Origin: Escherichia coli
GTDB taxonomy: Bacteria > Pseudomonadota > Gammaproteobacteria > Enterobacterales > Enterobacteriaceae
Reading direction: 5' to 3' (one strand)
DNA: 64,000 bases
NCBI RefSeq assembly: GCF_002854065.1
Contig: NZ_CP024147.1
This document shows positions 39,298 to 40,979 of this stretch, piece by piece. The notes beneath the pieces are model-generated. The model was not told where the DNA came from and made no database searches. It saw only the letters and a program-made list of their open reading frames with translations. Both the position numbers and the translations under genes were made by a program. Position 1 is the stretch's first letter, and each line of letters begins with the position of its first letter.

Positions 39298-39435
39298 ATA
39301 ATGTTCATTTGTTATTATTCCGCCCTATCACTTCTCTCGTCATATCCTAGAATTATCAGTTAGTTAAACACACAAAGAGATCTGAACATCTTAAATAAGA
39401 CTATTTAAGATGCATAACTTGGTAATGACTCCAAC

Positions 39436-39939
39436 TTATTGATAGTGTTTTATGTTCAGATAATGCCCGATGACTTTGTCATGCAGCTCCACCGATTTTG
39501 AGAACGACAGCGACTTCCGTCCCAGCCGTGCCAGGTGCTGCCTCAGATTCAGGTTATGCCGCTCAATTCGCTGCGTATATCGCTTGCTGATTACGTGCAG
39601 CTTTCCCTTCAGGCGGGATTCATACAGCGGCCAGCCATCCGTCATCCATATCACCACGTCAAAGGGTGACAGCAGGCTCATAAGACGCCCCAGCGTCGCC
39701 ATAGTGCGTTCACCGAATACGTGCGCAACAACCGTCTTCCGGAGCCTGTCATACGCGTAAAACAGCCAGCGCTGGCGCGATTTAGCCCCGACGTATCCCC
39801 ACTGTTCGTCCATTTCCGCGCAGACGATGACGTCACTGCCCGGCTGTATGCGCGAGGTTACCGACTGCGGCCTGAGTTTTTTAAATGGCGGAAAATCGTG
39901 TTGAGGCCAACGCCCATAATGCGGGCGGTTGCCCGGCAT
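39436..39939 (-). CDS. insB: IS1 InsB frame (expressed as InsAB' fusion by -1 frameshift)
   Basis: 167-aa ORF ...[72 protein letters not shown]. Confidence 0.85.
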
Positions 39940-40133
39940 CCAACGCCATTCATGGCCATATCAATGATTTTCTGGTGCGTACCGGGTTGAGAAGCGGTGT
40001 AAGTGAACTGCAGTTGCCATGTTTTACGGCAGTGAGAGCAGAGATAGCGCTGATGTCCGGCAGTGCTTTTGCCGTTACGCACCACCCCGTCAGTAGCTGA
40101 ACAGGAGGGACAGCTGATAGAAACAGAAGCCAC
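39858..40133 (-). CDS. insA: IS1 InsA
   Basis: 91-aa [42 protein letters not shown]. Confidence 0.9.
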
Positions 40134-40226
40134 TGGAGCACCTCAAAAACACCATCATACACTAAATCAGTAAGTTGGCAGCATCACCGCATAACTTAGA
40201 TTCGCAAGATAGGTAATGACTCCAAC

Positions 40227-40730
40227 TTATTGATAGTGTTTTATGTTCAGATAATGCCCGATGACTTTGTCATGCAGCTCCACCGATTTTGAGAACGACA
40301 GCGACTTCCGTCCCAGCCGTGCCAGGTGCTGCCTCAGATTCAGGTTATGCCGCTCAATTCGCTGCGTATATCGCTTGCTGATTACGTGCAGCTTTCCCTT
40401 CAGGCGGGATTCATACAGCGGCCAGCCATCCGTCATCCATATCACCACGTCAAAGGGTGACAGCAGGCTCATAAGACGCCCCAGCGTCGCCATAGTGCGT
40501 TCACCGAATACGTGCGCAACAACCGTCTTCCGGAGCCTGTCATACGCGTAAAACAGCCAGCGCTGGCGCGATTTAGCCCCGACGTATCCCCACTGTTCGT
40601 CCATTTCCGCGCAGACGATGACGTCACTGCCCGGCTGTATGCGCGAGGTTACCGACTGCGGCCTGAGTTTTTTAAATGGCGGAAAATCGTGTTGAGGCCA
40701 ACGCCCATAATGCGGGCGGTTGCCCGGCAT
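40227..40730 (-). CDS. insB: IS1 InsB frame
   Basis: Identical 167-aa ORF. Confidence 0.85.
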
Positions 40731-40924
40731 CCAACGCCATTCATGGCCATATCAATGATTTTCTGGTGCGTACCGGGTTGAGAAGCGGTGTAAGTGAACT
40801 GCAGTTGCCATGTTTTACGGCAGTGAGAGCAGAGATAGCGCTGATGTCCGGCAGTGCTTTTGCCGTTACGCACCACCCCGTCAGTAGCTGAACAGGAGGG
40901 ACAGCTGATAGAAACAGAAGCCAC
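40649..40924 (-). CDS. insA: IS1 InsA
   Basis: Identical 91-aa InsA ORF. Confidence 0.9.
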
Positions 40925-40979
40925 TGGAGCACCTCAAAAACACCATCATACACTAAATCAGTAAGTTGGCAGCATCACC

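Follow-up and report, generated by a model that had tools for sequence, protein, structure and literature searches.

The ETT2 type III secretion island is widely degraded across Escherichia coli, and many deletion isoforms are already in the literature, the products of a 'mutational attrition' ascribed to Ren et al. (2004), as cited in PMC11068852 and PMC3032704. The locus analysed here lies in a window of 64,000 nucleotides from the E. coli contig NZ_CP024147.1 (assembly GCF_002854065.1). It resembles those isoforms in that the island, situated between yqeG and the tRNA-Gly gene glyU, is without most of its type III secretion genes, but differs from them in its endpoints, which run from 14 bp past the insertion site of one IS1 copy (IS1a) to codon 314 of the secretin gene sctC, where a second copy (IS1b) marks the joint.

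Two other well-described arrangements invite comparison. IS1 adjacent deletions, familiar from the gal and lac loci and from plasmids, reportedly arise by replicative intramolecular transposition, a view attributed to Reif and Saedler in 1975 and to Turlan and Chandler in 1995. The window shares with them an element retained at the joint, one surviving original junction and a new flank that lacks a duplication, and its relatives show one-sided deletions with different endpoints at the same IS end; unlike them, it is deduced from natural genomes and not from laboratory selection, and a second IS1 appears to have landed later, 14 bp away. Tn9-type composite transposons, like the pair in the window, consist of two direct IS1 copies around a short segment, but here the 'cargo' consists of native target DNA, 23 bp long, and the sequences outside the pair, GCATAACTT and CTATTATCC, do not form a duplication, so that the tandem unit did not arrive as a composite transposon. 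An active (IS)2 dimer, with abutted ends, is likewise rejected, the 23-bp spacer being made up of a target duplication of 9 bp and a further 14 bp that are native to the site.

Structure of the tandem IS1 pair

The initial annotation had described two identical 768-bp IS1 copies lying head-to-tail 23 bp apart, and base-by-base comparison shows this description to be exact to the base: IS1a and IS1b are each 768 bp long, 100% identical and in direct orientation (Table 1). Both end in the imperfect, IS1-type inverted repeats GGTAATGACTCCAACTTATTGAT / GGTGATGCTGCCAACTTACTGAT and carry on the minus strand the open reading frames insA (91 aa) and insB' (167 aa), each of which matches the NCBIfam model NF033558 (transpos_IS1), together with the A6C motif for the -1 frameshift that joins the two frames, TTTAAAAAAC, at position 304 of the coding strand. 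Length, termini, gene organisation and the 9-bp target duplications of IS1a and of a third copy, IS1c, all identify the elements as IS1, and the identical element in two relatives discussed below, CUWW06 and 100416, is annotated as an IS1B-family transposase with programmed frameshift.

Table 1. Coordinates of the features at the reduced ETT2 island, as positions in the window
Feature	Position	Strand	Description
yqeG	38015..39244	+	amino acid/serine-threonine type permease; conserved left neighbour of ETT2; NCBIfam TIGR00814, E 1e-154
Target duplication of IS1a, left copy	39412..39420	.	9 bp, GCATAACTT; single copy in XJ34 and 100416
IS1a	39421..40188	-	intact 768-bp IS1 (insA, insB', A6C frameshift site); simple insertion
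Target duplication, right copy	40189..40197	.	GCATAACTT
Native segment between IS1a and IS1b	40198..40211	.	14 bp downstream of yqeG, AGATTCGCAAGATA; collinear with XJ34 empty site
IS1b	40212..40979	-	intact IS1 identical to IS1a; no target duplication; at deletion joint
Truncated sctC/eivG	40975..41922	-	codons 1-314 of 567, then a Gly codon and stop from the IS1b end; C-terminal secretin domain missing
eivF	41919..42668	-	InvF-like AraC regulator, intact; NCBIfam InvF, E 1e-53; annotated eivF in relatives
IS2	44912..46242	+	1331 bp; inside glycoside hydrolase family 15 gene (full-length ygeQ homologue); 5-bp duplication AACCA
IS1c	47435..48202	+	third identical IS1, inverted relative to IS1a and IS1b; simple insertion between actS and xdhA; 9-bp duplication AACGCGGTA

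As a reference we used E. coli XJ34 (NZ_CP098231.1), which carries a near-intact ETT2 and agrees with the window at 99.8-100% in both unique flanks. From amiC to ygfK the two sequences run collinear except for the three IS1 copies, the IS2 and the missing segment; the rest of the window has no IS elements and follows E. coli sequence collinearly at 99.5-99.8%. Together with the existence of near-identical E. coli relatives, this leaves unsupported a Shigella origin, to which the absence of the locus from complete E. coli genomes had pointed. The empty site in XJ34 reads ...GATGCATAACTTAGATTCGCAAGATATCTTC..., with GCATAACTT present once. It follows that IS1a, which has GCATAACTT on both sides, is a simple insertion with a clean 9-bp duplication, as had been proposed, that the 23-bp spacer consists of the second copy of GCATAACTT and the 14 native base pairs AGATTCGCAAGATA, and that the left flank of IS1b is native sequence. 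The two flanks of IS1b itself, AGATTCGCAAGATA on the left and CTATTATCC on the right, differ, so that this copy has no target duplication; this part of the initial annotation also stands, and such an absence is what a deletion joint is expected to show.

With IS1c, the window holds three identical IS1 copies within 9 kb. IS1c is missing from CUWW06. Given that it lies 6.5-7.2 kb from IS1a and IS1b as an inverted identical copy, recombination could invert the eivF-glyU-actS segment.

The deletion joint and what remains of the island

The right flank of IS1b aligns from position 11142 of XJ34 L001, inside sctC (10200-11903), which places the joint at codon 314. In XJ34 the two IS1b flanks are 24,301 bp apart, collinear and in the same orientation, which identifies the event as a deletion and not an inversion; once the IS1 that XJ34 itself carries in yqeH is subtracted, about 23.5 kb of DNA, from yqeH to mid-sctC, is missing. 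An IS at the joint, collinear flanks, absence of the intervening DNA and lack of a target duplication together are the features of an IS-anchored deletion. The XJ34 alignment thereby confirms what had been read from the window alone, namely, that the left flank of IS1b is yqeG-proximal, that its right flank lies within a secretin gene at codon ~314, and that the ETT2 core between the yqeG-side boundary and mid-eivG has been lost.

The lost segment comprises yqeH, ygeH, the epr/epa/eiv apparatus genes, escV and invE, down to the 3' part of sctC, and has a G+C content of 35.8% in XJ34 vs 50.4% for the window. The island retains an N-terminal secretin stub of 314 residues, eivF, a ghoT/ortT-like gene and the IS2-disrupted glycoside hydrolase family 15 (GH15) gene. 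The gene order (yqeG ... sctC' eivF ghoT-like GH15 glyU actS) is that of the ETT2 location, yqeG being a 100% match to its counterpart in XJ34 and others, and the surviving genes have SPI-1-like homologues, the stub matching InvG and eivF matching InvF. Including the glycine codon contributed by IS1b, the joint encodes a product of exactly 315 aa, which differs from the XJ34 protein at one residue and matches residues 6-311 of 562 of Salmonella InvG (5tcq; E 5e-92). In E. coli MEW (L003, NZ_CM192120.1, 6001-7915), this secretin gene is also cut short by an IS1, at a point 204 bp deeper into the gene; the far side of that element is an unrelated locus (cmtA / alcohol dehydrogenase), which indicates an IS1-associated rearrangement and not a local deletion.

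Neither the joint between IS1b and sctC nor the tandem occurs in any of the 5,426 complete RefSeq E. coli genomes. The exact 315-aa stub does, however, turn up on short contigs of four other samples, all of which stop at the same base within the right end of IS1 and have one mismatch each to the window; the contig from ERR3970133 also breaks at the site of the window's IS2. The IS1b-sctC joint is real and circulating. The junction that runs from the right end of IS1a through the spacer to the left end of IS1b was found neither in other complete E. coli genomes nor in JGI metagenome contigs.

Two further features border the island. A perfect 16-bp inverted repeat (GAATGGTTCAAAATTG / CAATTTTGAACCATTC) with a 3-nt loop occupies positions 39255-39289, 11 bp past the yqeG stop codon, and is probably the yqeG terminator, just upstream of the region in which IS1 insertions accumulate. 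At the other end, the IS2 of the window occupies a different site from IS2H of K-12, in the opposite orientation, and is independent of it. CUWW06 has the identical IS2 with both flanks different, which suggests IS2-adjacent deletions in that genome.

Near-isogenic relatives and IS1 insertions downstream of yqeG

Searching each IS1 junction separately brought up two relatives far closer to the window than other genomes, which diverge from it by ~2% in the same flanks. Strain 100416, from the Gambia, shows a single mismatch to the window over 8.2 kb of flank. The identical IS1 occupies the exact left junction of IS1b, the IS1a site is empty, and the right end of this element joins escV (XJ34 position 926947), whereas the right end of IS1b in the window joins sctC at XJ34 position 923141. 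Strain CUWW06, from Thailand, has 0 mismatches over ~17 kb of flank and carries the identical IS1 at the exact left junction of IS1a, its right end joining eivF at codon ~24 (XJ34 position 921525), such that, relative to the window, CUWW06 is without positions 40189-42595. Thus, at each site, one IS junction is fixed while the other varies, with sctC in the window vs escV in 100416 at the IS1b site (hereafter b-site), and with eivF in CUWW06 at the IS1a site.

Along the 9.1 kb of left flank (window 30274-39420 vs CUWW06 L010), the two sequences differ solely by two indels, one of 7 bp (TAATTGA) and one of 1 bp, which may be real or assembly errors. CUWW06 and 100416 also have in common an identical 294-bp integrase remnant beside tRNA-Gly glyU (L010 11836-12129 and L002 13734-14027, respectively), which implies a glyU-integrated island in both, whereas the window has XJ34-like sequence in its place (46243-46439). 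With this remnant, three characters conflict with one simple tree, unless the island was excised in the lineage of the window or recombination intervened.

The insertions in these three genomes belong to a wider pattern. Across complete E. coli genomes, left ends of IS1 in this orientation are found at six positions within the 30 bp TTTAAGATGCATAACTTAGATTCGCAAGATATCTTCCG; in the window the hotspot region occupies 39391-39420 plus 40198-40211 (native sequence TTTAAGATGCATAACTTAGATTCGCAAGATA...). With the exception of IS1a, the simple insertion in the window, all these IS1 ends adjoin distinct deletion or rearrangement endpoints: eprH in 2018-06-4CC, escV in 100416, sctC in the window (IS1b), eivF in CUWW06, ygeQ in Z503, ygeV in VTB96959v and tssM in CUVM53. 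Insertions of IS1 in the reverse orientation in or beside the 30-bp stretch number two. Within ~0.6 kb of yqeG, IS1 is present in the same orientation in 31-45 complete E. coli genomes and in the reverse orientation in 27, for a total of about 60-70.

IS1 prefers AT-rich targets, and the G+C content of the stretch, 30-32%, fits this preference. An IHF site as the cause of the clustering did not hold up: the one site with one mismatch, 58 bp away, is no more than expected from a background of ~1.3 such sites per kb. That a second IS1 landed only 14 bp from the first is attributable to the hotspot. To a broader proposition we assign roughly even chances, namely, that the 30 bp downstream of yqeG are a true IS1 hotspot that seeds one-sided deletions and is a main driver of ETT2 loss across E. 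coli, and that the window, 100416 and CUWW06 form a stepwise series within one clone. If true, the series would run from an IS1 insertion through a deletion and a second IS1 insertion to a further deletion.

Origin of the deletion and the decay of ETT2

The account that we favour, and consider fairly probable on the strength of genome comparison, is an IS1 adjacent deletion anchored at IS1b, followed by insertion of IS1a, with the CUWW06 configuration representing a later deletion anchored at IS1a. An IS1 would first have inserted immediately after ...CGCAAGATA, within the AT-rich DNA that closely follows yqeG. Its right end would then have made at least one intramolecular transposition event, removing the DNA up to sctC codon 314; the IS1 would have kept its position and its left junction while losing the right-hand copy of the duplication. 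Finally, a further copy of the same IS1 would have inserted 14 bp to the left, giving rise to the GCATAACTT duplication and the tandem. The tandem would be a way-station without a function of its own: recombination between its two direct copies may collapse it, or further deletion may follow, as appears to have happened in CUWW06. A simple b-site insertion with ETT2 intact would be recognised by the joint of the IS1 right end to CGCAAGATATCTTCTGG; this presumed precursor, with CGCAAGATA duplicated, was not found in any complete genome.

The initial annotation had left two routes to an IS1-associated deletion side by side, adjacent deletion and recombination between IS1 copies. An IS1-associated deletion is supported, and the deletions that have one common IS1 end, with right endpoints in escV, sctC and eivF, favour adjacent deletion over recombination, short of proof. 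A RecA-mediated crossover between the b-site copy and a direct copy at sctC codon 314 would yield an identical end product, a hybrid IS1b without duplication between collinear flanks, and because the IS1 copies are all identical, IS1b would bear no mark of a recombinant origin. The substrates for such a crossover are plausible: IS1 is abundant, its copies, as the three in 9 kb of the window illustrate, are identical, and insertions in eivG/sctC are seen elsewhere, for example, IS1F in eivG of F2_18C (PMC6985150) and the IS1 of MEW, 204 bp from the sctC site of the window. However, an IS1 at codon 314 of sctC is absent from all 5,426 complete E. coli genomes, and the relatives would each have needed their own IS1 in the same orientation beforehand, in escV and in eivF, which amounts to more events than one anchored IS1 making one-sided deletions. 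We consider the crossover unlikely.

Since the yqeG-proximal segment is a target hotspot, the coinciding left junctions might in principle stem from separate insertions. The hotspot also enters into a mirror-image scheme, in which the original IS1 lay at sctC codon 314 and its left end transposed leftward into the stretch downstream of yqeG: the 30 bp, as a preferred IS1 target, would be a likely acceptor for intramolecular events too. A leftward deletion is nevertheless hard to reconcile with 100416, which has an identical IS1 and near-identical flanks but has in common with the window the left junction and not the right one; the left junctions would have to match to the base by chance, and we regard this scheme as improbable. 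Chance is ruled out, and it is very unlikely that the tandem is an assembly artefact concealing a single real IS1, because, hard as identical 768-bp repeats 23 bp apart are to assemble and although the spacer junction was not found in other genomes or in JGI metagenome contigs, both left junctions occur separately in independent complete genomes, the IS1b-sctC joint recurs in four samples, a perfect 9-bp duplication followed by 14 bp of correct native sequence would not come from misassembly, and assemblers tend to collapse such repeats, not to duplicate them.

Adjacent deletion by IS1, the favoured origin of the window's allele, can be set beside the ways in which two other lineages lost ETT2 sequence. 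In K-12 MG1655, yqeH-ygeO is kept and followed by IS2H, and the island resumes in ygeP/ygeQ, with ~16.9 kb missing that includes part of epr, epa and eiv, eivF and eivG among them; the statement in the initial annotation that K-12 has a different endpoint, lacking eivF/eivG and retaining the yqeH-ygeO side, is correct. E. coli B REL606 has a third version of the deletion, yqeH'-IS3-ygeQ', on which ground an E. coli B origin of the window is rejected. Both the IS2-flanked deletion of K-12 and the IS3-flanked deletion of B have endpoints unlike those of the window. Accordingly, three IS families, IS1 in the window, IS2 in K-12 and IS3 in B, flank three independent ETT2 deletions.

The locus in the window is a new allele of a known process, the IS-driven decay of ETT2, which is ordinary and well understood. 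It adds one precisely mapped allele to a long list of decay variants and leaves the current understanding unchanged. The lineage is unable to assemble an ETT2 apparatus, and most regulators of the island (yqeH, yqeI, ygeH and the LuxR-type regulator) are gone, eivF being kept. Taken with K-12 and B, the allele shows different insertion sequences independently cutting down the same island, and its more useful by-product is the support that natural genomes lend to IS1-anchored deletions with one end in common and to a small IS1 target hotspot at the edge of the island.
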